Positions 1,804 to 39,192 of a stretch of 39,192 nucleotides of DNA are shown here, piece by piece. The notes below the pieces were generated by a model, which saw nothing but the letters and a program-made list of their open reading frames with translations, searched no databases and was not told the origin of the DNA. The position numbers and the translations under genes are program-made. This stretch comes from a virus: positions 1-39,192 of the IMG/VR virus record IMGVR_UViG_3300026488_000006. One strand, given 5' to 3'. Numbering within the stretch: the first letter of the stretch is position 1; each line of letters opens with the position of its first letter.

Positions 1804-2757
1804 TCACCCCTCCGCGTCGTTCACGTAATCCCAGTCCCCAAAGTCGGTGCGGGTGCGCTCGATAGCCGAGAGAGCCTCATCAATCTCCGAGTGCGCCGGC
1901 TTGAGCTCGCGCTCCGTGAGCTCGACGAAGACCGCCTCTGGCACGAGGTAGTAGTACGGCCTCTTATATCCCACTCTAATCTGGCGCCTCTCGATGCCGA
2001 ACTTCCTAAGCGTCTCCGCGAGCTTCTTGATTGAAGTGATGCCCAGCATTGAGCGAGCCTTCTGACGGACGAGGCGCGCAAGGACGGCGTAGTACTTCCC
2101 GCGCTTGTCCACGTAAATCATCGCCTCGGGCACGGTCGCCTTGTCCTTCGCGCTCTCAAGGCTGATGGGCGGATAGAGGTCGTAGAGCTCTGCCATCAAC
2201 TCACCGACGCCGATGTCATCCTCGCGCACCATCACGGCTTGCTCGAAGGCGCGGGTAATCAACTGTTGAAGCTGGTCAACGCGCTCGCCGTCCTCGGTCT
2301 GATAGGTGCGCAGGATAATTGGGACATTGAAAAGCTCAAGCGTGAAAGAAGCAATCTCGCCGAGGACGGAGCGACGGTCAGAGGCGATGGATTTGACCGG
2401 GATGATAAGAGGCTCGTCCTTGCCGTAGAAGTAGATTTTAAGCTCCCGCGTCGCGCGGTTGTAGAGGATTTTATCCGCAAAGCTCAGCATCAGCGACACG
2501 GGGTCCGTCGCGACCAGCGGGCAGTTCATGATGTCACAGACTTCCGGGGCGACTTGGTTCACGCTGAGGCAGGAGAACGGCCTCGTAGCCCCCTTGGCCT
2601 CGCGGAAGAGCTCGCTCGCGAGGTCGTCCCCGGCCAGCTCGGCCACGTCGTTGTACTTCGGCTGGTACTCGTGGATGTAAGCCAGCACGAGCTCCTTCTC
2701 CTCGCCCGTGAGAGTGCCCTTTTCAAGGAGCGCCCTAATGCACGGAGGGAGGCTCAT
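1804..2757 (-). CDS. Hypothetical protein (317 aa) with a Cys cluster (CLSVNQVAPEVCDIMNCP); possible replication-associated protein
   Basis: RBS GGAGGTGAGGGT before ATG; its stop overlaps the helicase start. Function not recognisable. Confidence 0.6.
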   Translation of the reverse strand: MSLPPCIRALLEKGTLTGEEKELVLAYIHEYQPKYNDVAELAGDDLASELFREAKGATRPFSCLSVNQVAPEVCDIMNCPLVATDPVSLMLSFADKILYNRATRELKIYFYGKDEPLIIPVKSIASDRRSVLGEIASFTLELFNVPIILRTYQTEDGERVDQLQQLITRAFEQAVMVREDDIGVGELMAELYDLYPPISLESAKDKATVPEAMIYVDKRGKYYAVLARLVRQKARSMLGITSIKKLAETLRKFGIERRQIRVGYKRPYYYLVPEAVFVELTERELKPAHSEIDEALSAIERTRTDFGDWDYVNDAEG

Positions 2758-3347
2758 ACCCTCACCTCCATCACCGCCTCGTAGGCGACCTCCTCGCTAA
2801 TGAGCCCCTTATTTATAATATATAGTAGGTATCCAGCAACGTCTCTCTGCCTCAGCGGGAGCTTCACACCACGCCTCCAGAGCTCGTCGAGGAGGTAGCG
2901 CGAGGCGACCACGAAGAACACCTGTGGCTGGCGGAAGTTGTAGTTGAACGGGCCGAGGCGGAGAGTTGGGCCGAAGTGGAACTCCACGACGAGGTAACGG
3001 GCGACCGGTATCTCACCACGCTCAAGGCGGGCGTCCTTGAGCATACGCTTAAAGGCCTCAAAGGGGTCGGCGAACGGACAGGCCTTCCGGCGCTCCTCGT
3101 TGCAGTACTTCTTCAGGTGCTCCGGCTTTGCACCGAAGGGGCACGGAAAGAGCGGGGCGGTGTTCAGCATCGCCCGAATCCCGCGCTTCCTCTGTTCATA
3201 AGTATCGAAAGAGTAGTAGCCGAGGCTCCAGAGGGCCGGCTCAAGCTTTTCGTCGCCGAAGGTGTGGAAAAAGGATAAGAGGTCGTCGAGGGCCTCGGTG
3301 TCGCGGGCGGAGATGGCGTTTTTGACGCACTCCGGGAGCTCACTCAT
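2754..3347 (-). CDS. Hypothetical protein (about 197 aa) with Cys-rich segment (CPFGAKPEHLKKYCNEERRKACPF)
   Basis: Track ORF 2754..3419; start moved to the ATG at 3347, which follows RBS AAGGAGGTGG; the upstream part of the track ORF is probably untranslated. Confidence 0.55.
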   Translation of the reverse strand: MSELPECVKNAISARDTEALDDLLSFFHTFGDEKLEPALWSLGYYSFDTYEQRKRGIRAMLNTAPLFPCPFGAKPEHLKKYCNEERRKACPFADPFEAFKRMLKDARLERGEIPVARYLVVEFHFGPTLRLGPFNYNFRQPQVFFVVASRYLLDELWRRGVKLPLRQRDVAGYLLYIINKGLISEEVAYEAVMEVRV

Positions 3348-3522
3348 CGTGAGCCACCTCCTTGCGGACGACCAGCTTGTCGGCATAAACCTCGACCTTG
3401 ACGCGCTCGGTGTTGCCAATCCACCAGCGCGGGATGCTTATCCTCGGCGAGGTCCGGAACCTCTTGTCGAGGTACATTACCTTCCTTTCGAGGACAGCAG
3501 TCGGCTTCTCCATACGCACCAC
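3340..3522 (-). CDS. Small hypothetical protein (60 aa), first gene of the origin-spanning minus operon
   Basis: C-terminal codons contain the RBS of the next gene and its stop overlaps that gene's ATG (ATGAGTGA); TATA-like ATATTTAAGG lies upstream on the minus strand. Confidence 0.4.
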   Translation of the reverse strand: MVRMEKPTAVLERKVMYLDKRFRTSPRISIPRWWIGNTERVKVEVYADKLVVRKEVAHDE

Positions 3523-3708
3523 CGGGCATTAGTTAGTGCACTTCTCCTTAAATATCTTGCGAAAGCAGTTCCGTTTAACGCCGGCGGGCTTGTTAATTAG
3601 GCAAACACTTCTGTTTAACACTAGGGCAAGAGTTAGGCGCCACCGTTGCTGTGGGTCAGCCAGCCTCGACGGGCGCCGAAAATCCGGGGTAGCCAGCCAC
3701 TCTACATT

Positions 3709-4233
3709 GTCTTCACGTCATCGCAACGGGGCCCGGCGTTGCGGTGATGAAGACACATAGGTTTAAACTTGTCCGTTTTGTTACCCACTTCTGTTCCTAT
3801 GATGTGCTTATGTGGACGCCGAAAAAGGTAGGAGCGGGCTTTTTCGGTGTACAAAAGTGTTCTGAAGACAAAATCGCTTCTCACGAAGACACGTAATAAG
3901 GTGATGAAGACACAAAGGTTGACCTTATCACGGAAACAAGAGAGGGCTTTTTTGCCCATTTTAAAGGTAGGAGAATGCCGTTTCAATGTACAAAAGTGTT
4001 CTGAAGACAAAACCACTTCTCACGAAGACACGTAATTTCGGGCCCTGCTCCACTGACAGTAGTACTGCATCACCATAGGCCAGCATTACCAACGGCGGTG
4101 GCTCAACGCTTTGCTGGAAAAAATGTGCACATCTGGGGAATCAAGGTCAACCCCGTGTCTTCATCACTTTGTTACGTGTCTTCGTGAGAAGCGATTTTGT
4201 CTTCATCACCCCCATTACGTGTCTTCGTGAGAA
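3709..4233. repeat. Iteron array / putative replication origin or master regulatory region
   Basis: Two 49-bp direct repeats (3849-3897, 3988-4036); GTGATGAAGACAC at 3744-3756 and 3901-3913; inverted copies at 4155-4167, 4172-4209 and 4214-4233. At least 11 GAAGACA cores in about 525 bp, switching orientation around a 120-bp centre. Confidence 0.6.
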
Positions 4234-4335
4234 CCCAAAACAAGGGTATTTTTGGCTTATATGGTTAAACATGTGTGGTTTTACGGCGACTGTCTAAAAA
4301 CCGTAAAAAAGAAGTTAAGTCCCGGCGCTGGATGT

Positions 4336-5565
4336 CTAGAGCCACTGCCCCAACCGGTGGTTTTTGGCCACATCGCCAAGCTCCCGCTCAAACCTCCGCC
4401 TTATGATTTCGCAGTAGTCCGGATTCATCTCGATACCGACCCAACGCCTACCGAGCTTCTCCGCCACGACGAGAGTAGTCCCTGCTCCAGCAAACGGGTC
4501 GAGGACTACGCCGTCCTTCGGGCAAGCGACCTTAATTAAGAGCTCCGGGACGTCTGGCGGGAAGACCGCAAAGTGGGCGTCCTTGAACGGGCGGACGTTT
4601 ATTTGGATAACATCATTCGGGCGGACTTTGTAATCCCCCTCTCGTATCTTGCGGGCTATTCCTTCGTTGATTTCTCTAGAGCTCCTCGGATAAAGTTCGC
4701 CCTTGTTGTGAGGGCCAACTCTCCAGCGATACTTGGCTCGTTCCCGGGTCAATTCTGACGGTTCTGGTGCGACGGCTTTCCAATCAAAATAATACTTCGG
4801 CCTCTTCGTGAAGTGGAAGATGTACTCCCAGCTGTGGCTGAAGCGGTCTCTGACTGATTCGGGCATGGCGTTACCCTTCGTCGTCCTGTCTTTGTAAAAG
4901 TGCACTTTCTTTGCCCAGATTATTTTCTCCCGCAGAATCCAGCCCTCGTCGTAAACCATCTTGACGGCGAAGAGTTCAGGCACGAGAGCGAGGGACTTTT
5001 TCTTTAGTCCATCTGGCCACGCAACCTTTGGGACGTTGCTCCTCCCGTTCCACTTCGGGTCGTTGTCGTTGCCGAGACCATAACCGTGCCCACCACCAAC
5101 CCACGTGTCGTCAATGTTCACGAAGAGGCTCCCCGTCGGCTTGAGGACACGCTTGACCTCACGGAAAATCTCGACGAGGTGCTCGACAAACATCTGAGGA
5201 GTCGGCTCAAGGCCGAGCTGTCCATACCACGCCCCGCACTTCTTACAGATGAGGGCCGTCCGCTTGTTATACTTCTTTATCCGGGTCGTGCCCCTCGCTC
5301 CGACCACTTCGTCCTGCTTCCCGCGGACGTTGTTTCTGTTCTCGTGCTGAAGGCCAACTTCTTGCCCCACCCACTCGTGGTCGCAGTCCGGGTCGCCTCC
5401 AAAGACGGTGAACGTGGCGTCGCCGTAGTCCCTCTTGGCCCAATAGGGTGGAGAAGTAATTACCACATCCACGCTCTCATCAGGGAGATAGCGGAGCACT
5501 TCGAGGGCGTCTCCACAGTAGAGCCTGCCGAGCCGGGTTTCGAAGTAGGGCTCCATTCCAACCAT
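4336..5565 (-). CDS. DNA methyltransferase, beta-class amino-MTase (N6-adenine or N4-cytosine)
   Basis: Motif IV SPPYW near the N-terminus and motif I DPFAGAGTT near the C-terminus (order IV then I is the beta class). Track ORF 4336..5586; likely start is the ATG at 5565 after RBS GAGGTGGTG. Confidence 0.85.
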   Translation of the reverse strand: MVGMEPYFETRLGRLYCGDALEVLRYLPDESVDVVITSPPYWAKRDYGDATFTVFGGDPDCDHEWVGQEVGLQHENRNNVRGKQDEVVGARGTTRIKKYNKRTALICKKCGAWYGQLGLEPTPQMFVEHLVEIFREVKRVLKPTGSLFVNIDDTWVGGGHGYGLGNDNDPKWNGRSNVPKVAWPDGLKKKSLALVPELFAVKMVYDEGWILREKIIWAKKVHFYKDRTTKGNAMPESVRDRFSHSWEYIFHFTKRPKYYFDWKAVAPEPSELTRERAKYRWRVGPHNKGELYPRSSREINEGIARKIREGDYKVRPNDVIQINVRPFKDAHFAVFPPDVPELLIKVACPKDGVVLDPFAGAGTTLVVAEKLGRRWVGIEMNPDYCEIIRRRFERELGDVAKNHRLGQWL

Positions 5566-5576
5566 CCCGCACCACC

Positions 5577-6314
5577 TCACAGCCACCCCTTCTCGGCCTC
5601 AGCCTCCAGGAAGTCAAGAACCGAGCGGAGGCACTCCTTCAGCTTGGCAACCTTCGCCCGCCTCTGCTGGACCTCCTCGTCGCTCTCGCCGGCGCGCTTC
5701 AGCGTGAGCGTGTCGAGCATCAGCCTGAGGTACTTCGCGTGGGTCCTTGCCTCGTCGAGGCTGTCGCCGTGCACCTGGATGAGGGACTGTCCGTTGAACA
5801 GCACCGCGTCGGCGCCGAAGCGGTAGCCCGCGATGACCACCTCGTCCACGCCCCTGATACCGCTGTCCGGGTCGGCGAAGACCAGGAGCGCGACGGCGCG
5901 GTCGGTGCGGGTGTGTTCATCGAGCTCGACCGGCCCGTGACTACCGGTTAAGCGAAGGCGGTAGATGACTTTCCCGGGCACGGCCACGGCGACGGCCCTG
6001 TCGAGCTCGAACGCCGGGTAGCCGGCCAGCTGGAGCGCCCTGGCGAACACGCGGTTTGGCCCGAGGAGCGTCCAGCCGTACTCTGGGTCGCCCCACTCCT
6101 CGACGAGGCCGGACAGGGACCTTATGAGCTCCCCCAGCGCCTGCTTCGTGAGCGGTAGCCTGTTCTCCTGCCAAAGCGAGCGGAGCTTTTCGGCCAGCTC
6201 GGCCACGCTCTCGCTGTCGGCCACGGCGTCCGCTATGTCGTGGTAGAGCCGGACGAGCTCCGCCCTGTCGGGAATCACTATGTGGTCGAGCTCGTAGCGC
6301 GCCACCTCACGCAC
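5577..6314 (-). CDS. Hypothetical protein (245 aa) immediately upstream of and overlapping the methyltransferase
   Basis: Co-oriented, 3' end overlaps the MTase start; no convincing nuclease motif seen. Confidence 0.55.
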   Translation of the reverse strand: MREVARYELDHIVIPDRAELVRLYHDIADAVADSESVAELAEKLRSLWQENRLPLTKQALGELIRSLSGLVEEWGDPEYGWTLLGPNRVFARALQLAGYPAFELDRAVAVAVPGKVIYRLRLTGSHGPVELDEHTRTDRAVALLVFADPDSGIRGVDEVVIAGYRFGADAVLFNGQSLIQVHGDSLDEARTHAKYLRLMLDTLTLKRAGESDEEVQQRRAKVAKLKECLRSVLDFLEAEAEKGWL

Positions 6315-6405
6315 CTCCGCACCTGGCTTTTCTCTTCACGGCCCACTCTATGAGTGTAGCGCCGGCGTAAGCGAGAATCATGTCGGAGGATGGTGTCTTC
6401 ATGGC

Positions 6406-6573
6406 TCACCACACCTCCTCGACGCGGACGAGGGCGACTTGTTTGAAAGACCCGGTTTTCCCTATGAGTTCGGCCACGGTTCGGGCCTTATCGCTGTCGT
6501 CGTTGGCGCAGAGGATGCGGAGGTAGTCGCGCCCTTGGACTTCTTCGACGCCAAGGACCCAATACCGGGTCAC
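6406..6573 (-). CDS. Small hypothetical protein (55 aa)
   Basis: Not in the ORF track (<60 aa). GTG start two nt after the upstream stop; C-terminal codons GAGGAGGTGTGGTGA carry an RBS; protein-like composition. Confidence 0.35.
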   Translation of the reverse strand: MTRYWVLGVEEVQGRDYLRILCANDDSDKARTVAELIGKTGSFKQVALVRVEEVW

Positions 6574-6575
6574 GT

Positions 6576-6836
6576 TCACCACCTCACCGCGACCATTGTC
6601 CAGGTGGCGTTCTCGCCGAGCGCGACTTTGAAGTCGTAGCCGTTCTCTTTAAGCCATGTGATGGCCTTCTCCGCCGGGCCGTCGGCGGGCCCGCCTCTGA
6701 ACCACGCGAAGACTGTGCTTTTCTTTGGCGAGTAGCTGATGAGGTATGCTCCGAGCTCCTCAAGCTTTGCCACGAGGCGTCCAAAGTGGTAGTAGTCACC
6801 CGCCTTGAAGAAGCCCTTAGCTATCACCATCACCAC
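6576..6836 (-). CDS. Hypothetical protein (about 85 aa)
   Basis: RBS GGAGGTGGTG then ATG; stop overlaps the next start. Confidence 0.5.
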   Translation of the reverse strand: MVMVIAKGFFKAGDYYHFGRLVAKLEELGAYLISYSPKKSTVFAWFRGGPADGPAEKAITWLKENGYDFKVALGENATWTMVAVRW

Positions 6837-7359
6837 CTCCGAGCGTCTGGGTGAACCAGCCCTTCGTGGCGAGTACCTTCACGGCCTGCTCGGCAGGGAT
6901 GATTTTATCCAGTAGGCCGGCGAGTTCAGCCCAGCGCTCGTCCGGGTAGAACATTGCCGATTGGGCGACGCGCCTGAGGTTCTTTAGCGCTTTCACCGCG
7001 AGCATTCCGGCTTCCCTCGGCGTGACGAACCACTCCGGGGCGAGGACGAAGCCCGCCTTGGCGCCGTTGGTGTAGATGGTCAGCCGGCGCATCTTCCGCG
7101 CCCCACTCTTTGTGAGCAGGTTGAGGAAAGCCAGCGGGAGCGTTAGTACGTTCCGCTCGCCCTCGGCTACGCCTTGGAACTCCTTCTTCAGCCCCGCCGG
7201 GATGTGGTGCTCCTCGACTGCCACGAGGAAGTTGCTGTTCGTCCAGAGGTAGTAGGTGCCCGGTGCCACCGTTAGTCTCGCTTGGTGGCCAGGGATGAGG
7301 AGTAAGTACCTACTCGCCGGCCTGAGCTCTTGTTTAAGTGCCCAGTCGAGCGGAGTCAT
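6817..7359 (-). CDS. Hypothetical protein (180 aa)
   Basis: RBS GGAGGTGATG before ATG at 7359; C-terminus ends in Gly-rich codons that form the next gene's RBS. Confidence 0.55.
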   Translation of the reverse strand: MTPLDWALKQELRPASRYLLLIPGHQARLTVAPGTYYLWTNSNFLVAVEEHHIPAGLKKEFQGVAEGERNVLTLPLAFLNLLTKSGARKMRRLTIYTNGAKAGFVLAPEWFVTPREAGMLAVKALKNLRRVAQSAMFYPDERWAELAGLLDKIIPAEQAVKVLATKGWFTQTLGGGDGDS

Positions 7360-8057
7360 TCGGCATCACCTCCGAGCTTCATCCAGTGGTCGTACTCATC
7401 GAGGAGCAACTTTATCGCGTCGCGGGCGAGTGGGCGCATTTTCGGGAGGCAGGCCTTCACGAGCTTGCTGTAAACTTCCAGCTCGCCCGCGCCGACCTCG
7501 CCGGCGTTGAGCTCGCGAACGATGTTCCGCGCCTGCATAACTACTGTGTTCTCGGTTATGTGGTGGACGCCCCCCCTCGTGCCCAACGCCTTCATGGAGT
7601 AGTTGCCAGTGATTGGGTTGAAGAACACGCGCACCTTCCGGAACGTCCATAGTGGAACGCTCTTGCTGGCCTTGACCTTGCCGTCGAGCTTGTAGTAAAC
7701 ACGCCCGTCAATGATGCGCATTTCCCCCTCCTTGAGCTCGTCCTTGAGCACCCACTTGCCCACTTTCTTTGGACTCTTCGCTTTCTTTCCCGGCCCGGCC
7801 CCGGCTTTGTCCTCTACCTCGGCGCCTTTGTCGGCGAGGCCGAGCTCCGGCGCCTCCGTTTTGGCCGGTTGGGGGGCCGGGACAACATTGGGGCTTTTCT
7901 TGCCCAGCCTAATGGAGTCCTCAATGTTCTTTATGAAGACGTGGGCGGTTCGCTTGCTGACGCCGACCTTGAGGAGCTCCTCTTCGAGGGCCTTCTTGGC
8001 AGAAAAATATTCGGAGACGGCGGAAACGAAGCGGGCGACGGCTTCGTCGAGGCTCAT
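7356..8057 (-). CDS. Hypothetical protein (233 aa) with a Lys/Ala/Pro-rich basic linker; possible DNA-binding protein
   Basis: RBS GGGGGTGA before ATG; low-complexity basic segment PAPQPAKTEAPELGLADKGAEVEDKAGAGPGKKAKSPKK. Confidence 0.55.
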   Translation of the reverse strand: MSLDEAVARFVSAVSEYFSAKKALEEELLKVGVSKRTAHVFIKNIEDSIRLGKKSPNVVPAPQPAKTEAPELGLADKGAEVEDKAGAGPGKKAKSPKKVGKWVLKDELKEGEMRIIDGRVYYKLDGKVKASKSVPLWTFRKVRVFFNPITGNYSMKALGTRGGVHHITENTVVMQARNIVRELNAGEVGAGELEVYSKLVKACLPKMRPLARDAIKLLLDEYDHWMKLGGDAE

Positions 8058-8317
8058 TTGGTGTCACCCCCGAGCGCGACCAGCAACGCTTCCACGAGGC
8101 GCCAGGACTTCGGCCCGGTGAGGATTGCGTCAAAGTGGTCGTCGTGCTCAAGCGTGTGGACCTCGCGGAGCTCGGCGTTGCCTTTCACCCAGGCGCCCCT
8201 CCTGGCGTCGAAGTTCCAGCCGGCCCTTTCGAGGACGGCCCAAAGCGTCTGTGGCCTCATCTCCGGCACGAGGATGAAGAACTCCTGCCCCGCGAGCCTC
8301 AGCGCGAGCTCAATCAT
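8054..8317 (-). CDS. Hypothetical protein (87 aa)
   Basis: RBS GGGGGAGGTG before ATG at 8317; tiled in operon. Confidence 0.5.
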   Translation of the reverse strand: MIELALRLAGQEFFILVPEMRPQTLWAVLERAGWNFDARRGAWVKGNAELREVHTLEHDDHFDAILTGPKSWRLVEALLVALGGDTK

Positions 8318-22721: not shown

Positions 22722-25700
22722 TCACCTCAGCTCCTTCCTCAACTCCGCAACGAACTTTTCATATATCTCGTTGAACGGCCAGGGGAATTCTGGCTCGTAG
22801 CCAAGACTCTTCAGCACCGTCGCGGGCACCACTGCGACCAAGTAGAACATCGTGGGCTCGCAAAGCCAGCCCTTCTCGTTCTCTCCGAGCTCGTCCTCAA
22901 ACTTGACCTGCACCGTGAAGTGGTTGTAGTCCGCCTTGTGGCAAATCTTTCTGTGCTTTCTGAGGAAAGCCAGCACGGCAGTACTGTAAGGCTCGCCCGC
23001 CTTAGCATTCCTCTTCAGCCATGCACGTATGAGGCTCGCAACCTTCCTATATACCTCGTGGATGCCACCCTCGACCAGAGCACCGCCCGCCTGCTCCACA
23101 GCGTATAGCGCCATCGCTTCGGCGAACGTCAGCGGGGCCCTCTTCTTCCTGTCTATGTACTCGCCGATGATGTTCTCCCCGAGCCACTTCTTGAGAAAGT
23201 CGGCATACATGCTGGCGTCCGAGTGAGTCTTGGCCTTCTCCTTAAGGTAGCGCTCAACGCCATACCACAGCATAGCTGAGAGCTCGCGCGGGTCTTCGAG
23301 GGCCCGACTGAGCCACTCCGGCACCTCGCCGAGGTACTGGTAGATGTTCTTTGGCTTCGATAGTTCTTTCCTCCGCTCGACTATCTCAGTTGCTGAAACC
23401 ACCCCACCCGAGCGCTTCTTCATCTCGACCGGGAGCTCTCGGCGCCCGACCTTTTGGTTGTACACACTTGTGGCCAACTTCGAGGCTTCGATGACGGCGC
23501 TGTCGAACGGGAGCTCGCCCTTGGCCACCATATCCGCGAGAACCCATAGGTCGCGCTCGATGTCGGGGAGCACGAAGTCGAGGTCAATGTTGCGCTTGAG
23601 TAGTCTGCGGTCGAGGCTCTTGAGTAGGCGCTCATAGGTGGCTCTAACTTCCTCTGGCACTTCCGGTGCTCTTCTTGGCTCAATCTCTTCGCTTATGGCC
23701 TCTTCTTCCGGCGTCAACTCCTTCACCTCCCTTTCGGCCCTGCGCTCGGGTTTTGCACCCAGCATTTTCTTCGCTTCCTCGACCTTCGCCTTCGGCAACG
23801 CCTTCCGCGCCTCCTTCATCACGATGGCCATCGCCCTCGGCTGGGTGAGCCTGCCTTCATAGACCTCGCGGGCGAGGCGCTCGATGAGCTCAAGCGGGGG
23901 CTCCGGCGGTCTGACATCGTGGAGCTCGAAGTAGCCTTCCCAGGTGTCGGTCAGCTTGCGCCTGATGAAGCGGAGGTCTTCCTCCTCCTGCGTCGCCATC
24001 TCGGCGACTTCTTCGAGCGGGAGCTCCGTCGCCTCGCCGTGCACCTTGACCGGGACCTCAACCTCCTCAAGCGGGGCCCCCTCTTTCTCCCCGGCAATAG
24101 TTCTCACCATGGACTCCTCCGGGATTTCGGCCTTCTGCTTCTCCTCCAGCTCGGCCTCAAGCTCCGGTAGCTCTTCCGGTGCCGGCGGTAAGTATTCCTT
24201 CGCCAGCTCGCGGACGTGGCGTGCCCATTCTTCCGGCGTCATCCCGAGGCGCCTGGCGAACTCTTCATCATTGGCCAACTGCTCGACCACTTCCTCGGCG
24301 CTGGTGGCACCGTACTGCTCCGGGTGCTCAAGGGCGTCGCGGATGTAGTCGTCAACCTGCCTCAGCAACTCGGCCCGCTCTTCCGTCTCAGTTGGCTTGA
24401 GCTTCCACCTCATAACCTCGGCTCCAGCCCTCGCGAGGAGCGCCTCCTCCTTGTTGGTCGGGAGCGTCCGGGCGTAGTGGACGAGCATATCATAGACCGT
24501 ACGGAACGGGTAGTAGTCGAGCTTCTGCCAGTCATAGTCTTCGACCTCGCTCGGGCTGATTGCGCCGAGGAGGACGAGCGTCTTGGCCACGCGCTCCGGC
24601 GTCGGCTTTAGGCCGAGGTAAAAGCCGAGCTGGGCGCGCTCTATTGAGGGCTTCGGCTTCTCCTCGCGGGCGGGCTTAGGCTCTGGCTGTGCGGACTTGG
24701 CAGTCCCCGGGACTTCTCTCGGCTTTTCCACCTTCTTCTTGCATTTTTCCACCTGTGGTGCCAGGAAGCGCTCAAAGTACGTAGTCACCAGCTCCTGTAA
24801 GTAGTTGGCTTTGACAAAGTTTAGGTGGCCGGGCTTGAGCTCGCGACGGACGACGTTGTAATACCCGCGGGCGTTGTCTGAGATGTGGCACACGCCGTTG
24901 GGGTAGTGTTTCTCGGGGTACAAAAACTCCTCACGGACGCCGAACTCGCGCTCAAGGTGGCGGGCGAAAACGTCCCTCGGAGCTGTCTTGGCGAACTCCT
25001 CGACTTGCTTCGTGAGCTCCGGCGTCACGTAGCGGACGTTGTAGTTTGGCTCATAAGACTCCGATTGTTTTGCTAATGCCTCAAGCTCAGCCTTTACTCT
25101 GTTGAGCGTCTCCCGCACGTCTTCCATCTGCTCCTTGAGCTCCTCGTCGCTCACGCGCGGGTTGCCTATCATCCTCCCAAGCACGCGCACCTTCACCTTT
25201 AGCGAGTTCTTAATGGTCGTGCTTAGCTTCCAAGGGAGCTTTTCCGGCAGGTTCTTGCGGAGCTCTTCGTATTCCTTGATTAGCTTCCTGGCCTCTTCCT
25301 CAAGCGCAAGGCGCTTTTCCGCCTCGGTGCCGGCCTTTGACTTAACGCCCAGCCCGCTCGTCAGGTAGCCGACGTATTTGCAGAAGTCCGGCATATTGGC
25401 GTCCTTCCACGTGAAGTTGGAGAGGTACTGGGCGAGGTAGAGTATCTCGCGGTCGAGCGGGTTGGCGCCGTGCCACTTGGGGATTTTTCCACGCTTTATG
25501 TCGGCACAGGCCATATCGAGCGGTATGAGCACGGCTTTGACCGGCTCGACCTTCCCGGCGTTGTAAAGCTTCCACGCCATAGCCGTGAGCGCCATGAGCT
25601 CCCTAAGCTTCTTCAGGCAGTCGTAGGGGCTCCTGCTGTCCCTACACAACTTATCGTAGTCGGTCCTCAATAGGATGAGCTTTCCGCCCGACAGGCACCA

Positions 25701-27761
25701 CCCAAGCTTTTTGCGCTCTATGAACTCACATATCTCGTCCGCCGAGACCTCCGCACCCATCCTGGCCAGCCTGCTCACCAGCCCCGGTAGCGTGTCCCAG
25801 ATTGAGAAGACCGTTGGGCTCTTGTTTAGCTTCTCGTCAATTATCTTCATTAATTCCTCGCGCCAGTCCACCTTTTTCGGACTCAGCCTCTCCAGAACTT
25901 CCTTTGTGAGCTCACGGGCGAGTGAGTGGACGCAGGGAACGTACTTACGCGGGTCTTTTCCACGACCAACCTCACAAACCCCGTCGAGCTCGATGGTCTC
26001 GCCGTTCACCCTTGCGCTCAACGTGATGTAGGCGCCGTGTAACTGCCCCAACCTCATCGTCAGCTCGAAGTCGCCCACCGCCGTCTTGACGAGCCACGTT
26101 TTTTCAGCCTGCGTGTCGCTGTTCCATTCCTTGACTGCCTTCCAGTCCAACGGGGGCTTCCCGGTCTCGTGGAGCACTACCTCGTACACCCCGTCGTAAA
26201 GCGCCTTCCGAGCATTCTTCCATACCTCGTTCCAGGGCTCCTTGAGCTCCGGCGGGTTAAGGCGGACTTCGCCGAACTTCTTTGAGAGGCCGGGAACGTT
26301 CATAGTGCGCTCGATGATTTCGAGGGCGTCGGCGATGGCGTTATCAGTCAGCTTCCTTACCCACGCCTTCCGCTTCGGCGACCAGCGGAACCCGTGCGCC
26401 TTGAGCTCGCGCCTAACCTCTGCCGGCGGGGCGCTCGTAAAGACCACCCAGAGCCTATCGTCGGCGTGGTTAGCAATGATTTTCCAGCCGTCACCCTTGG
26501 CCAACACCTGAACACCGCTTGTCGTGCCCTTGGCCTGCGCTTCTTTTTTCTCTAACTCCTCAATACGGGCCTTGAGGCGCTTTATTTTTTCACCAACACG
26601 GCGGAGCTCAAAGTCGGGGAAACCAATCCTGCCCAGCTCGTCCGGCTCCGGCCAAAAGAAGAAGTGGCCGGCCTCTGCAACTTTAAATGCGCCAATCTCT
26701 TTAAGCTTCCTCTCCTTCTCTTCGGGCGTGAGCTTCTTTGAGCGGATGATTTTGTTCGCTTCCTTCATTATCTCACGGCGCTTTTCGAGTATCGCCAACT
26801 CTTCCTTTAACCTCTCCAGTTCGCCAACGGCCTTTTTGTTCACGGCGCCCTGCTTCAGAGCTTCCTGCTCCTTCTTCAGCTCCTCTGCCAATTTATCAAG
26901 CTTCTTAAAGGCGTTCTTGATGAACTCGTCGAGCGCTGACAGCTTCCTATGTTCAGTCCGCCAGAGCTTTTCGAGCCGGTCTTGGCTCGGCATCCTCGCC
27001 GGCCCAACCACGTGGGCGCTCGGAATTCTCGCCCTCGTCGTTAAGTAGTCCTCATAAAGCTCAATGTAGCGCTTCGAAAAGTTTTGTATCAACCTCTTCG
27101 CCCGTTCGGGGCCGATGAGCGGGCAGAGCTTCTGCACCTTCTCAGCGTAGCGGTTCAGAGTGCGGAGGTAAGAGAGCTGGTCATACTCCGCGTCTTTCTC
27201 CGGGGTCCACGAATTAATAGAATACGCGCCCTTCGCCCGCTCAAACGGGAACGGTGTAACTTTGACGGGGATTATATCAGCCTTCCCGCCATAGTAACAC
27301 TCGATTTCAAGCGTCCAATTGTCCTGAATAAACGGGCCCCGTTCCCGCTTCGCCCTAACAACTGTCAAGATTTTATCAACGGGGCGCTCAAGCTCTTCTA
27401 CAAGAGAGTTCAATTGCGGGAGCTCGGATTTAAGCCTCTCAATAGCACCCTTGAGCTTCTCAACGTCTTCTGGTGTGAATTTATAGCGCCCAATGTCGGC
27501 CTCTCTCATTAAGTCGCGGTAGCGGTCAATGAGCTTATTCACGGCCACCCAGTCCCTCCACAGCCTCAAGAACTCCTCAACGCGCTCTTTCATCCCGGGC
27601 GGGAACTCCTCGCCGGCCTGTCTAATCTCATCTATATGTTCCTTGAGCCATAGGGCGCGGACGTAGTTCTTCATATCCTTTGTTCCCGAGAACCACCCGT
27701 TTTCGGCCCGGATGTCGTTAAACTCCCAGATGAGCTTTTGGACTTCATCGTACAGGTTCAC
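22722..27761 (-). CDS. Giant multidomain protein (1,679 aa) of unknown function
   Basis: Uninterrupted 5 kb ORF; GTG start at 27761 after RBS GGGGGTGGTGGC; coiled-coil-like and highly acidic/basic segments; no Walker A, no polymerase or primase motif that I could confirm. Confidence 0.7.
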   Translation of the reverse strand: MNLYDEVQKLIWEFNDIRAENGWFSGTKDMKNYVRALWLKEHIDEIRQAGEEFPPGMKERVEEFLRLWRDWVAVNKLIDRYRDLMREADIGRYKFTPEDVEKLKGAIERLKSELPQLNSLVEELERPVDKILTVVRAKRERGPFIQDNWTLEIECYYGGKADIIPVKVTPFPFERAKGAYSINSWTPEKDAEYDQLSYLRTLNRYAEKVQKLCPLIGPERAKRLIQNFSKRYIELYEDYLTTRARIPSAHVVGPARMPSQDRLEKLWRTEHRKLSALDEFIKNAFKKLDKLAEELKKEQEALKQGAVNKKAVGELERLKEELAILEKRREIMKEANKIIRSKKLTPEEKERKLKEIGAFKVAEAGHFFFWPEPDELGRIGFPDFELRRVGEKIKRLKARIEELEKKEAQAKGTTSGVQVLAKGDGWKIIANHADDRLWVVFTSAPPAEVRRELKAHGFRWSPKRKAWVRKLTDNAIADALEIIERTMNVPGLSKKFGEVRLNPPELKEPWNEVWKNARKALYDGVYEVVLHETGKPPLDWKAVKEWNSDTQAEKTWLVKTAVGDFELTMRLGQLHGAYITLSARVNGETIELDGVCEVGRGKDPRKYVPCVHSLARELTKEVLERLSPKKVDWREELMKIIDEKLNKSPTVFSIWDTLPGLVSRLARMGAEVSADEICEFIERKKLGWCLSGGKLILLRTDYDKLCRDSRSPYDCLKKLRELMALTAMAWKLYNAGKVEPVKAVLIPLDMACADIKRGKIPKWHGANPLDREILYLAQYLSNFTWKDANMPDFCKYVGYLTSGLGVKSKAGTEAEKRLALEEEARKLIKEYEELRKNLPEKLPWKLSTTIKNSLKVKVRVLGRMIGNPRVSDEELKEQMEDVRETLNRVKAELEALAKQSESYEPNYNVRYVTPELTKQVEEFAKTAPRDVFARHLEREFGVREEFLYPEKHYPNGVCHISDNARGYYNVVRRELKPGHLNFVKANYLQELVTTYFERFLAPQVEKCKKKVEKPREVPGTAKSAQPEPKPAREEKPKPSIERAQLGFYLGLKPTPERVAKTLVLLGAISPSEVEDYDWQKLDYYPFRTVYDMLVHYARTLPTNKEEALLARAGAEVMRWKLKPTETEERAELLRQVDDYIRDALEHPEQYGATSAEEVVEQLANDEEFARRLGMTPEEWARHVRELAKEYLPPAPEELPELEAELEEKQKAEIPEESMVRTIAGEKEGAPLEEVEVPVKVHGEATELPLEEVAEMATQEEEDLRFIRRKLTDTWEGYFELHDVRPPEPPLELIERLAREVYEGRLTQPRAMAIVMKEARKALPKAKVEEAKKMLGAKPERRAEREVKELTPEEEAISEEIEPRRAPEVPEEVRATYERLLKSLDRRLLKRNIDLDFVLPDIERDLWVLADMVAKGELPFDSAVIEASKLATSVYNQKVGRRELPVEMKKRSGGVVSATEIVERRKELSKPKNIYQYLGEVPEWLSRALEDPRELSAMLWYGVERYLKEKAKTHSDASMYADFLKKWLGENIIGEYIDRKKRAPLTFAEAMALYAVEQAGGALVEGGIHEVYRKVASLIRAWLKRNAKAGEPYSTAVLAFLRKHRKICHKADYNHFTVQVKFEDELGENEKGWLCEPTMFYLVAVVPATVLKSLGYEPEFPWPFNEIYEKFVAELRKELR

Positions 27762-36320: not shown

Positions 36321-37130
36321 TCACACATTCGAAATCACCTCAGTAAGGCTTTTCTGACGGGAGTTTTGGAACCCATCTAATAACCGAACCCAATGGAGTA
36401 CTCTCTGTCGTATCTGCATCCAGATAGGCTTAGAGTTCTTCACGCGGTCAATACCATACCTATATGCCAAACTGTCCGCCGAGTAAAGAGCTTCTCTCAC
36501 GTCAGGATACCTGAGCACTCCAAACTTTACTCCAAAAGCGTGCAACTTAACCCTCCTTGGTGTCGCTTCTCTTATTGCGAGTATGTATCTCCGTATTTGC
36601 GGTTCTTGCCCGCGCCGGCACATTGTGCCGAGGCCGAGAAGTTCAGTCAGGAGACCATGCTCCTTCATATAATCGAGCATCCAGAGATAGTCGTCAAGCG
36701 CCCACCCCTGCAATACTGCCACAAAGTGCTTCTTAAGTTCAGGATACTGGTCGTCAATTAGATTCTGAATTACAATCTGGTTTTCTATCGTTTTCATCTG
36801 ATTTTCTCGAACCGTGCGACCCCACTTCTTGCGGACTTCCGGTTCGCACGGATAATCCCTATTCGCAAAGAGGACATTCTCAAAGCGTCCAGAATTGAGC
36901 TGACGAAGGACAAACTCAAGGTAGCGCTCGTGTGGGTCCGGGTATTCTTGCATGCGGTAAAAAAAGCTGAAGCCTCCGCTGTCAATGAACAACCAGCTTG
37001 TGTTCCTAGGTGGGGTTCTAACTCTGGAAGCATAGTTAATCATAACATTGAACTTGCGCGGAGCGAGGCTTTCAAATGCCTTTTTTGCTGAACCATCCCC
37101 CACACCAAAAAAGAAACTAAACACGGCCAT
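36321..37130 (-). CDS. TGT-family transglycosylase, DpdA-like (7-deazaguanine DNA transglycosylase candidate)
   Basis: Motif WLFIDSGGFSFF matches the tRNA-guanine transglycosylase active-site motif (E. coli Tgt ILTDSGGFQVF); downstream blocks align loosely with TGT (VAVLQG, LLGLGTM, YSADSL); no CxCxxC...H zinc site. Track ORF 36321..37271 starts at a TTG; ATG at 37130 follows RBS AGGAAGGAGCGTG. Confidence 0.7.
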   Translation of the reverse strand: MAVFSFFFGVGDGSAKKAFESLAPRKFNVMINYASRVRTPPRNTSWLFIDSGGFSFFYRMQEYPDPHERYLEFVLRQLNSGRFENVLFANRDYPCEPEVRKKWGRTVRENQMKTIENQIVIQNLIDDQYPELKKHFVAVLQGWALDDYLWMLDYMKEHGLLTELLGLGTMCRRGQEPQIRRYILAIREATPRRVKLHAFGVKFGVLRYPDVREALYSADSLAYRYGIDRVKNSKPIWMQIRQRVLHWVRLLDGFQNSRQKSLTEVISNV

Positions 37131-37296
37131 CACGCTCCTTCCTAAGTGTTGCAATAAAGCACTCGTCGAAAAACTCACAAGCTTCACAGAGCGAGTCGCC
37201 CTGAAAGTCTCCAAAGCAAGGCGGTAGTTCCTCAGCGCCCTCATTGTCGAATTCGCCCCAAACCTCTCCAAAAACCGTTATGAGAACCTTAGCCAC
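37117..37296 (-). CDS. Small Cys-rich protein (59 aa), possible metal-binding
   Basis: Not in the ORF track. GTG start after RBS GGGGGTGACGGGGC, directly after the upstream stop; C-x11-C-x2-C-x5-C; overlaps the dpdA-like start by 14 nt in another frame. Confidence 0.35.
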   Translation of the reverse strand: MAKVLITVFGEVWGEFDNEGAEELPPCFGDFQGDSLCEACEFFDECFIATLRKERDGRV

Positions 37297-38472: not shown

Positions 38473-39192
38473 TCAATGCTCGGGGTAAGCCACGACTAAA
38501 AACGGGCCGACGCACCAAGTGTCGAGGAGCGCGAACTCGTAAACCGGCGTGTAGCCGGCCCTCTCGCCGACACGGCGGACTATCTCCTCGGCCTCTTCGA
38601 GGTCGTCGGCCCAGCCCTCGTACTCCTCGCCGGAGACCGTGTTCTTCACCACGATGCGGTAGCCAGCCGGCTTTTGCTTTTTGAACCGGCGCATCTTCTC
38701 CCAGCGCTCCGGCCAGGTCTTCCTCCACTCTGCCTCGCGCTTCTGCCACTCCGAGAGGTCGCCAGTGCGTTTCTCGTTGCGCGGGAGCTGGACGCGCTTT
38801 GAAAGGGCTTTCATCACCATCGCCAGCGCAAACGGGCCGAGCTCCCTGTTGAAAAAGCGGACGCGGACGAAGGCACCGGGGCGCTCAGCAACGAAAAAGT
38901 ACGCGACCTTTGGGTCGTCGGGCAGGGTGGCACCTTCCCTCACGAGCTCGTCCCAGAGCTCGTCGCGACCTGAGCGGAGCTTCCAGCCGGCGAAGTGCCT
39001 CAGCCCAATGCCCAAAAGCGGGCCGAGCCCCTGCCTGTTCATACCCAACAATAGCTTTTCGGCTTCTGCCGGACCGATGTTCCGGGCCTCGACCTCAAGG
39101 CGACCGGTGTTCAGCTCGACGGTAGCAGTCCAACGCCCCACATCGGGCTCAACGTTCACGTCGAGAACCTCAATCTTAAACCGCCTCTTCCT
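38473..39192 (-). CDS. Hypothetical protein (about 241 aa), wraps across the window boundary
   Basis: Track ORF 38473..39159 starts at a GTG; in circular coordinates an in-frame ATG at the position equivalent to 131-133 follows a strong RBS (GGAGGTGATTTA) just after the helicase stop. The first two codons lie outside the window end but are present at 128-133. Confidence 0.55.
   Translation of the reverse strand, partial: RKRRFKIEVLDVNVEPDVGRWTATVELNTGRLEVEARNIGPAEAEKLLLGMNRQGLGPLLGIGLRHFAGWKLRSGRDELWDELVREGATLPDDPKVAYFFVAERPGAFVRVRFFNRELGPFALAMVMKALSKRVQLPRNEKRTGDLSEWQKREAEWRKTWPERWEKMRRFKKQKPAGYRIVVKNTVSGEEYEGWADDLEEAEEIVRRVGERAGYTPVYEFALLDTWCVGPFLVVAYPEH
39066..39192. repeat. Terminal direct repeat, copy 2 (identical to 1-127)
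   Basis: Read directly; implies a unit length of about 39,065 bp. Confidence 0.9.

Follow-up and report, generated by a model that had tools for sequence, protein, structure and literature searches.

An IMG/VR viral record (IMGVR_UViG_3300026488_000006), whose whole stretch of 39,192 nucleotides (nt) is here termed the window, carries a gene for a beta-class DNA methyltransferase (MTase) just downstream of a gene for a protein of 245 amino acids (aa). The question raised by this locus is whether the two genes form a compact type II restriction-modification (R-M) pair or whether the MTase is an orphan that protects the element bearing it; the original prediction had offered both alternatives. 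The comparisons reported below favour the second, since the two genes were found to be unlinked in both directions among related elements, while the first was contradicted by that same lack of linkage and by the failure to find a nuclease match or fold for the 245-aa protein. The enzyme is most likely a solitary (orphan) beta-class MTase, carried as accessory cargo on a mobile element of ~39 kb from an uncultivated microbe and likely to serve in self-protection.

The methyltransferase and its neighbour are not co-inherited

The open reading frame (ORF) of the MTase matched the N6_N4_Mtase family PF01555 over profile positions 1-220 of 221 (E 1.6e-45), with a score of 156.2 bits against a curated cut-off of 26.7, which places it in that family. 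It also matched phrog_67 "DNA methyltransferase" (E 1.4e-68) and the PADLOC model MTase_II (E 6.9e-82), while the score against the NCBIfam CcrM model (E 6.8e-17) was far below that model's cut-off. The catalytic motif IV (SPPY) lies N-terminal to the S-adenosylmethionine (AdoMet)-binding motif I (FAGAGTT), the order typical of the beta class; the original prediction had read this order correctly. Both motifs aligned with those of PDB 2zie and M.PvuII. The DPFAG.G core of motif I did not vary in alignment A4, SPPY was present in 113 of the 120 closest homologues (SPPF in one), and the catalytic motifs of the window enzyme are all intact. The subfamily is large, with 7217 proteins at E <=1e-10 among the candidates scored.

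The genes of a type II R-M system would be expected to be inherited together, with an endonuclease gene next to that of the MTase. The loci of relatives (designated L001, L002 and so on) were fetched and searched by tblastn with the window proteins. The backbone order is ...417aa...109-87-233-180-83-57-31-245aa-[slot]-non-coding region-60aa-197aa-317aa-UvrD helicase-241aa, and the 409-aa SPPY enzyme occupies the slot in the window. In the sister strain (L016/L005), which is 97.7% identical in nucleotide sequence over window positions 5494-8317 and 92% identical in the 245-aa protein, the slot holds another PF01555 enzyme, 276 aa long and bearing DPPY (L016:3441-4271, plus strand), which shares with the window MTase only ~35-45 N-terminal residues and the C-terminal end. 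In L001 (helicase 86% identical, 245-aa homologue 61%) it holds three ORFs (130, 142 and 190 aa) that match nothing in Pfam, and in L002/L003 (helicase 57%, 245-aa homologue 39%) it is taken up by ORFs 72 and 173 aa long. The 245-aa gene thus occurs without a window-type MTase in all these relatives. The reverse was also seen: orthologues of the MTase but no 245-aa gene were found in L009 and L057 (74% identity, immediately upstream of the helicase gene), in L058 (63%, in the slot before the non-coding region, behind an unrelated 170-aa gene) and in L010 and L011 (61%, other integrase-bearing elements with further PF01555 genes). A profile of the 245-aa family gave no match in L057-L059. Nor was any adjacent gene for an endonuclease of the PD-(D/E)xK, HNH, GIY-YIG, phospholipase D (PLD) or half-pipe type found in the window. 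The MTase is therefore an enzyme with no cognate nuclease nearby, the presence and position of which vary among related elements. A scan of genome contigs with the MTase returned near-full-length matches of <=45% identity in all cases, from unrelated bacteria and archaea, and so gave no indication of the host.

The close spacing of the two genes does not alter this conclusion. The MTase gene is the last (3' end) of a long minus-strand operon in which, among the 21 junctions before the non-coding gap, 8 overlap and 16 are of <=15 nt; since tight packing is the norm in this operon, spacing carries no information on functional coupling. The overlap between the MTase start and the upstream gene, as originally described, is itself doubtful. 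It exists only if translation begins at the most upstream GTG (position 5586), which gives the longest ORF (4336..5586, minus strand, 416 aa). On the source contig (ena:ERZ27262635:k141_279034; 39,206 nt) the gene is called as P0004, which begins at ATG 5565 and encodes 409 aa; this ATG comes 11 nt after the stop codon of the 245-aa gene (TGA 5579-5577), is preceded by a candidate ribosome-binding site (Table 1), and agrees with the position of SPPY at residues 35-38 in most close homologues. A scan of positions 3300-6600 for sigma-70 promoters and intrinsic terminators gave nothing above background.

Table 1. Features of the locus and of the element, in window coordinates
Feature	Position	Strand	Basis or remarks
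Conserved 245-aa gene, no recognisable nuclease	5577..6314	-	Homologues, alignments, family and fold searches, synteny
GAGGTG, Shine-Dalgarno-like	5573..5578	-	7 nt before ATG 5565; shares the last two bases of the 245-aa stop codon; read from sequence
Beta-class DNA methyltransferase, 409 aa	4336..5565	-	PF01555, phrog_67, PADLOC MTase_II; same gene call P0004 on the source contig
Catalytic motif IV, SPPY	5443..5454	-	Residues 45-48 in 416-aa numbering
Cys/His-rich insertion CDHEW ... CKKCGAW, probable zinc ribbon	5227..5385	-	Between motif IV and the GQLGLEPT block
AdoMet-binding motif I, FAGAGTT	4474..4494	-	Residues 365-371 in 416-aa numbering
Segment replaced relative to sister strain L016	3585..5493		blastn and identity profile, L016 ORFs, protein comparison
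Non-coding region downstream of the MTase, 813 nt, GC 0.47	3523..4335		11 copies of GAAGACA[C/A]
DpdA-like gene (7-deazaguanine DNA modification transglycosylase family)	36321..37271	-	PF23859, E 1.9e-20

Exchange of the slot and the repeats beside it

Among beta-class enzymes, N4CMT, which acts on cytosine N4, bears SPPY, and CcrM, which acts on adenine, bears DPPY (PMC10406627). The presence of Ser rather than Asp at the first position of motif IV would place the window MTase in the N4-cytosine subgroup, although this rule is a tendency and no proof of the base methylated. In the PDB the sequence was best matched by 2zie (a putative methylase of Thermus), the N4-cytosine enzyme M.PvuII and the structures of N4CMT. 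Given the motif shared with N4CMT and these nearest solved relatives, the enzyme is probably N4-cytosine-specific, with N4-methylcytosine (m4C) as its predicted product.

The segment replaced relative to the sister strain comprises the body of the MTase gene and most of the non-coding region. Within it nothing but positions 4338-4514, at the 3' end of the MTase gene, can still be aligned to L016, and the divergence seen in the identity profile tails off through the 3' half of the 245-aa gene. The MTase orthologues are moreover mosaics of two variable regions which, with the replaced block, fit a repeated recombinational exchange of specificity. As judged from these alignments the slot is prone to swapping, the sister enzymes having been exchanged within conserved gene ends, and the exchange in L016 probably changes both the base methylated and the target. 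A recent foreign origin of the MTase gene was considered from its composition and rejected: its GC content at third codon positions (GC3) is 0.70, against ~0.8-0.9 in the neighbouring genes, but this falls inside the range of the genome (0.58-0.90) and is not diagnostic.

Two further observations concern the surroundings of the slot. A second mosaic block relative to L016 was seen at window positions 1804-3347 (minus strand), where the 317-aa and 197-aa genes have 81% and 86% aa identity and the nucleotide identity is 72-91%, against 99.5% in the adjacent helicase gene and 100% in the 60-aa ORF; the dN/dS (ratio of non-synonymous to synonymous substitution rates) of 1.55 for the 317-aa gene came from a gapped alignment and is untrustworthy. 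In addition, a C5-cytosine methyltransferase gene (PF00145) lies just upstream of the helicase gene in L001 (14595-15221) and L009 (1649-2626). In L009 it immediately precedes the orthologue of the window MTase, which points to a second methyltransferase hot spot in the lineage.

The non-coding region beside the MTase gene bears copies of GAAGACA[C/A] in direct and inverted blocks: six on the plus strand (3749-4024), one on the minus strand at 3707 and four more on the minus strand (4155-4226). Nine copies of GAAGACAC were counted in the window, where 1.4 would be expected. Equivalent regions with the same layout and another repeat were found in L016 (4260-5010; TGGGCAA-type), L001 (12170-12890; AAGTTAAGTAA every 21 nt) and L058 (5500-6330). 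By eye, a 'CAATG[CT]ACA' / 'ATGTACAAAAGTGTTC' element is shared by three of these regions. A search of positions 3523-4335 against Rfam gave no match, and a mini-array of clustered regularly interspaced short palindromic repeats (CRISPR) was rejected, since the repeats are spaced at 139 nt and occur in both orientations, in addition to the lack of an Rfam match. The region may be an origin or operator; for the question posed here it is context and no part of an R-M system.

The position of these repeats raises the possibility that the MTase is mainly regulatory, methylating the adjacent iteron-rich region, which may be an origin or operator, and thereby controlling replication or transcription in the manner of Dam or CcrM at bacterial origins. 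The gene abuts the repeats, and in the sister strain its body and the non-coding region were replaced together, with a change of repeat type. However, such joint replacement is predicted by physical linkage alone. The orthologues in L009 and L057 lie away from any such region, that of L058 lies beside a different repeat set (although its specificity may differ), and regions of this kind occur in L001 and L002 with no MTase in the slot. A mainly regulatory role is thus unlikely. CcrM, like the window MTase, belongs to the beta class and to PF01555 and has no nuclease partner, but CcrM and Dam carry DPPY, methylate adenine and are conserved chromosomal genes, whereas the window enzyme carries SPPY and is swappable cargo.

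A more elaborate proposal would treat the MTase and the iteron-rich region as one exchangeable module, the target of the enzyme lying within the lineage-specific repeats, which are GAAGACA[C/A] in the window and of the TGGGCAA type in the sister strain with its DPPY enzyme, methylation setting the identity of the origin or operator, and enzyme and region being exchanged as a unit; separately, the 245-aa family, which numbers about 40 and matches no fold, could be a new kind of replication-associated protein. This combination is regarded as improbable, even more so than regulation by itself.

The 245-aa protein

Homologues of the 245-aa protein with 92, 61 and 39% identity could be aligned over their full length, and dN/dS of the gene between the sister strains was 0.44, indicative of purifying selection. 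The protein is rare. Of 5.8 billion clustered proteins only three were recovered as relatives, and when 1.84 billion representatives were searched with a profile, 24 matched at E <=0.001, none of them annotated. No relative was found when GenBank phage records were searched with the protein, or when IMG/VR was searched for the family. The genes neighbouring distant members were unannotated (L012) or primase, ParB-like and Rad51-like genes (L014), with no adjoining methyltransferase.

In the closest homologues (alignment A1), DPDSG (148-152), RFGAD (165-169) and HGD (182-184) are invariant, the first two within the contexts FADPDSG (146-152) and GYRFGAD (163-169). The core of the wider family reads GRA...V...GDPDSG...GYRFG.DD...VHGD, and in its alignment (A2) D148, G163, R165, F166 and G167 are the only invariant residues; no (D/E)xK, HNH or GIY-YIG pattern was found there. 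The motifs GDxxDxG and HGD recall metallophosphoesterases, but this assignment was rejected since their order and spacing do not fit and no profile matched. The original description of a protein without recognisable family held in Pfam (restriction-enzyme families included), NCBIfam, PHROGs and PADLOC, none of which gave a match; the suggestion that it might be a restriction endonuclease gained nothing from the profile search of 5577..6314 against such families, which came back empty. Among 25 family members scanned, three matched two PHROG families that carry no description, and the sole Pfam finding was a phosphatase domain fused to the C-terminus of two distant members, P0129 and P0143 (low-molecular-weight phosphotyrosine phosphatase, PF01451; best E 9.6e-07). 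In several members a Cys-rich N-terminus ('C...CPIADRC') replaces the helical bundle described below.

Sequence profiles of the PDB gave nothing below E 0.1 with the 245-aa protein. Two AlphaFold models were obtained, with predicted local distance difference test (pLDDT) scores of 79 and 75, that is, of moderate confidence. In the full model (pLDDT 79) a strand at the N-terminus and three helices accompany a beta-rich core, and the C-terminus forms a long helical hairpin. The shape predicted is that of an N-terminal bundle of helices and a beta-rich core, the latter with an invariant acidic loop, ending in a hairpin of C-terminal helices. Fold searches with both models revealed no nuclease fold, and the predicted viral structures in BFVD gave nothing at E <=0.001.

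The protein might still be a nuclease independent of the MTase, one that degrades host DNA or is modification-dependent, the element being spared by DpdA-type or methyl modifications. The conservation of its gene whatever occupies the MTase slot, the invariant acidic loop and the presence of a DpdA-like gene on the element would be in keeping with this. Against it, no nuclease family or fold was matched, the incomplete contigs of the relatives limit the view of their DpdA content, and nothing specific suggests nuclease chemistry, which makes the proposal very unlikely.

Least credible of all is the compact type II pair, in which the 245-aa protein would be an endonuclease of unrecognised family and the MTase its cognate partner: as in PvuII-type systems a type II-like MTase has a tightly packed neighbour on the same strand, acidic and histidine residues of that neighbour (DPD 148-150, D169, HGD 182-184) are invariant in the closest homologues, and restriction enzymes are frequently orphans by sequence, but the nuclease of such a pair cannot remain 92% identical through a change in the type of its MTase, as in the sister strain, nor persist where the methyltransferase is absent, as in the slots of L001 and L002/L003, while MTase orthologues occur without the 245-aa gene and this neighbour, unlike those of type II systems, has no nuclease signature, profile match or fold and does not co-occur with the MTase in relatives. 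Taken together, the comparisons indicate that the 245-aa gene is a conserved gene of the lineage and not the restriction partner of the MTase.

Restriction pressure and the solitary enzyme

Relative to the ENA contig the window is reverse-complemented and rotated, and its two ends carry a 127-nt direct repeat (1-127 and 39066-39192); together these imply a circular or terminally redundant genome of ~39,065 bp. Restriction sites were counted over the whole window (1-39192) against maximal-order Markov expectations. Five patterns were completely missing: GATC (99 expected), GCWGC (68), GCSGC (149), CTCGAG (37) and GTCGAC (17). CTAG was found 6 times where 57 were expected, and CATG and GGWCC were also strongly depleted. 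The sister strain showed the same pattern of avoidance and other relatives parts of it. The missing restriction sites and the DpdA-like gene fit a heavy restriction pressure on the element, and the absence of GATC, GCNGC, CTCGAG and GTCGAC gives indirect support to a role of the MTase in protection from host restriction.

According to the explanation preferred here, that of a solitary cargo MTase, the enzyme would methylate the DNA of the element at a short motif during replication and thereby block one family of host restriction enzymes. The element would then have three anti-restriction layers: site purging, base exchange by the DpdA-like protein, and methylation. The slot is a hot spot of recombination, filled in relatives by unrelated small ORFs or, in the sister strain, by a DPPY-type (adenine-type) MTase. 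The annotated neighbours of the DpdA-like gene included no genes for preQ0 synthesis.

Among known enzymes, M.PvuII (PDB 1boo) and rotifer N4CMT (PDB 8s9m-8s9o) share with the window MTase the PF01555 domain, the permutation that places motif IV before motif I, an S-P-P-aromatic motif IV and an FxGxG motif I. The similarity covers mainly the N-terminal ~40 and the C-terminal ~65 residues, and the window enzyme differs in its length (409 vs ~250-320 aa), a longer variable region and the ~60-residue Cys/His insertion. The C-x-H...C-x-x-C pattern of this insertion follows motif IV in 95 of the 120 closest homologues and gave weak zinc-ribbon matches in Pfam and NCBIfam, which suggests that it may bind metal. 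M.PvuII works with R.PvuII, whereas no partner was found for the window MTase. In this it resembles the solitary MTases of phages and archaeal viruses (phrog_67; for instance the enzyme annotated as an N4-cytosine methyltransferase in Halorubrum tailed virus 29), which are likewise stand-alone PF01555 enzymes without a nuclease partner, variable among related genomes and presumed to have an anti-restriction role. However, its identity to deposited phage and virus sequences nowhere reaches 40%, and a search of deposited phage records with the DNA of window positions 4000-8000 returned no relative of the element.

Several points weigh against the solitary MTase. Its activity and methylated base are predictions from sequence, and its target motif is presumed. 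The contigs of the relatives are incomplete, so that a methyltransferase may lie elsewhere in their genomes, and L001 does have a C5 MTase fragment near its helicase gene. Restriction enzymes evolve fast and often go unmatched, and the negative family and fold searches are by themselves weak evidence; the most conserved loop of the 245-aa protein (163-172) is, besides, below pLDDT 50 in the full model. As to host and lifestyle, none of the large ORFs could be recognised as a capsid, portal or terminase gene, and the element may thus be either a virus or a plasmid. A 1679-aa protein (22722-27761, minus strand) has a primase-like region at residues 206-482 (phrog_19458, E 1.4e-34).

Orphan MTases are common on viruses and plasmids, and the finding is in that sense ordinary and of limited significance. 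The 245-aa protein adds a small uncharacterised family with no detectable fold relatives. The locus nevertheless provides a clear natural example of near-identical elements with an anti-restriction slot in which MTases of differing predicted base specificity are found, in a genome that has also been completely purged of four restriction sites.
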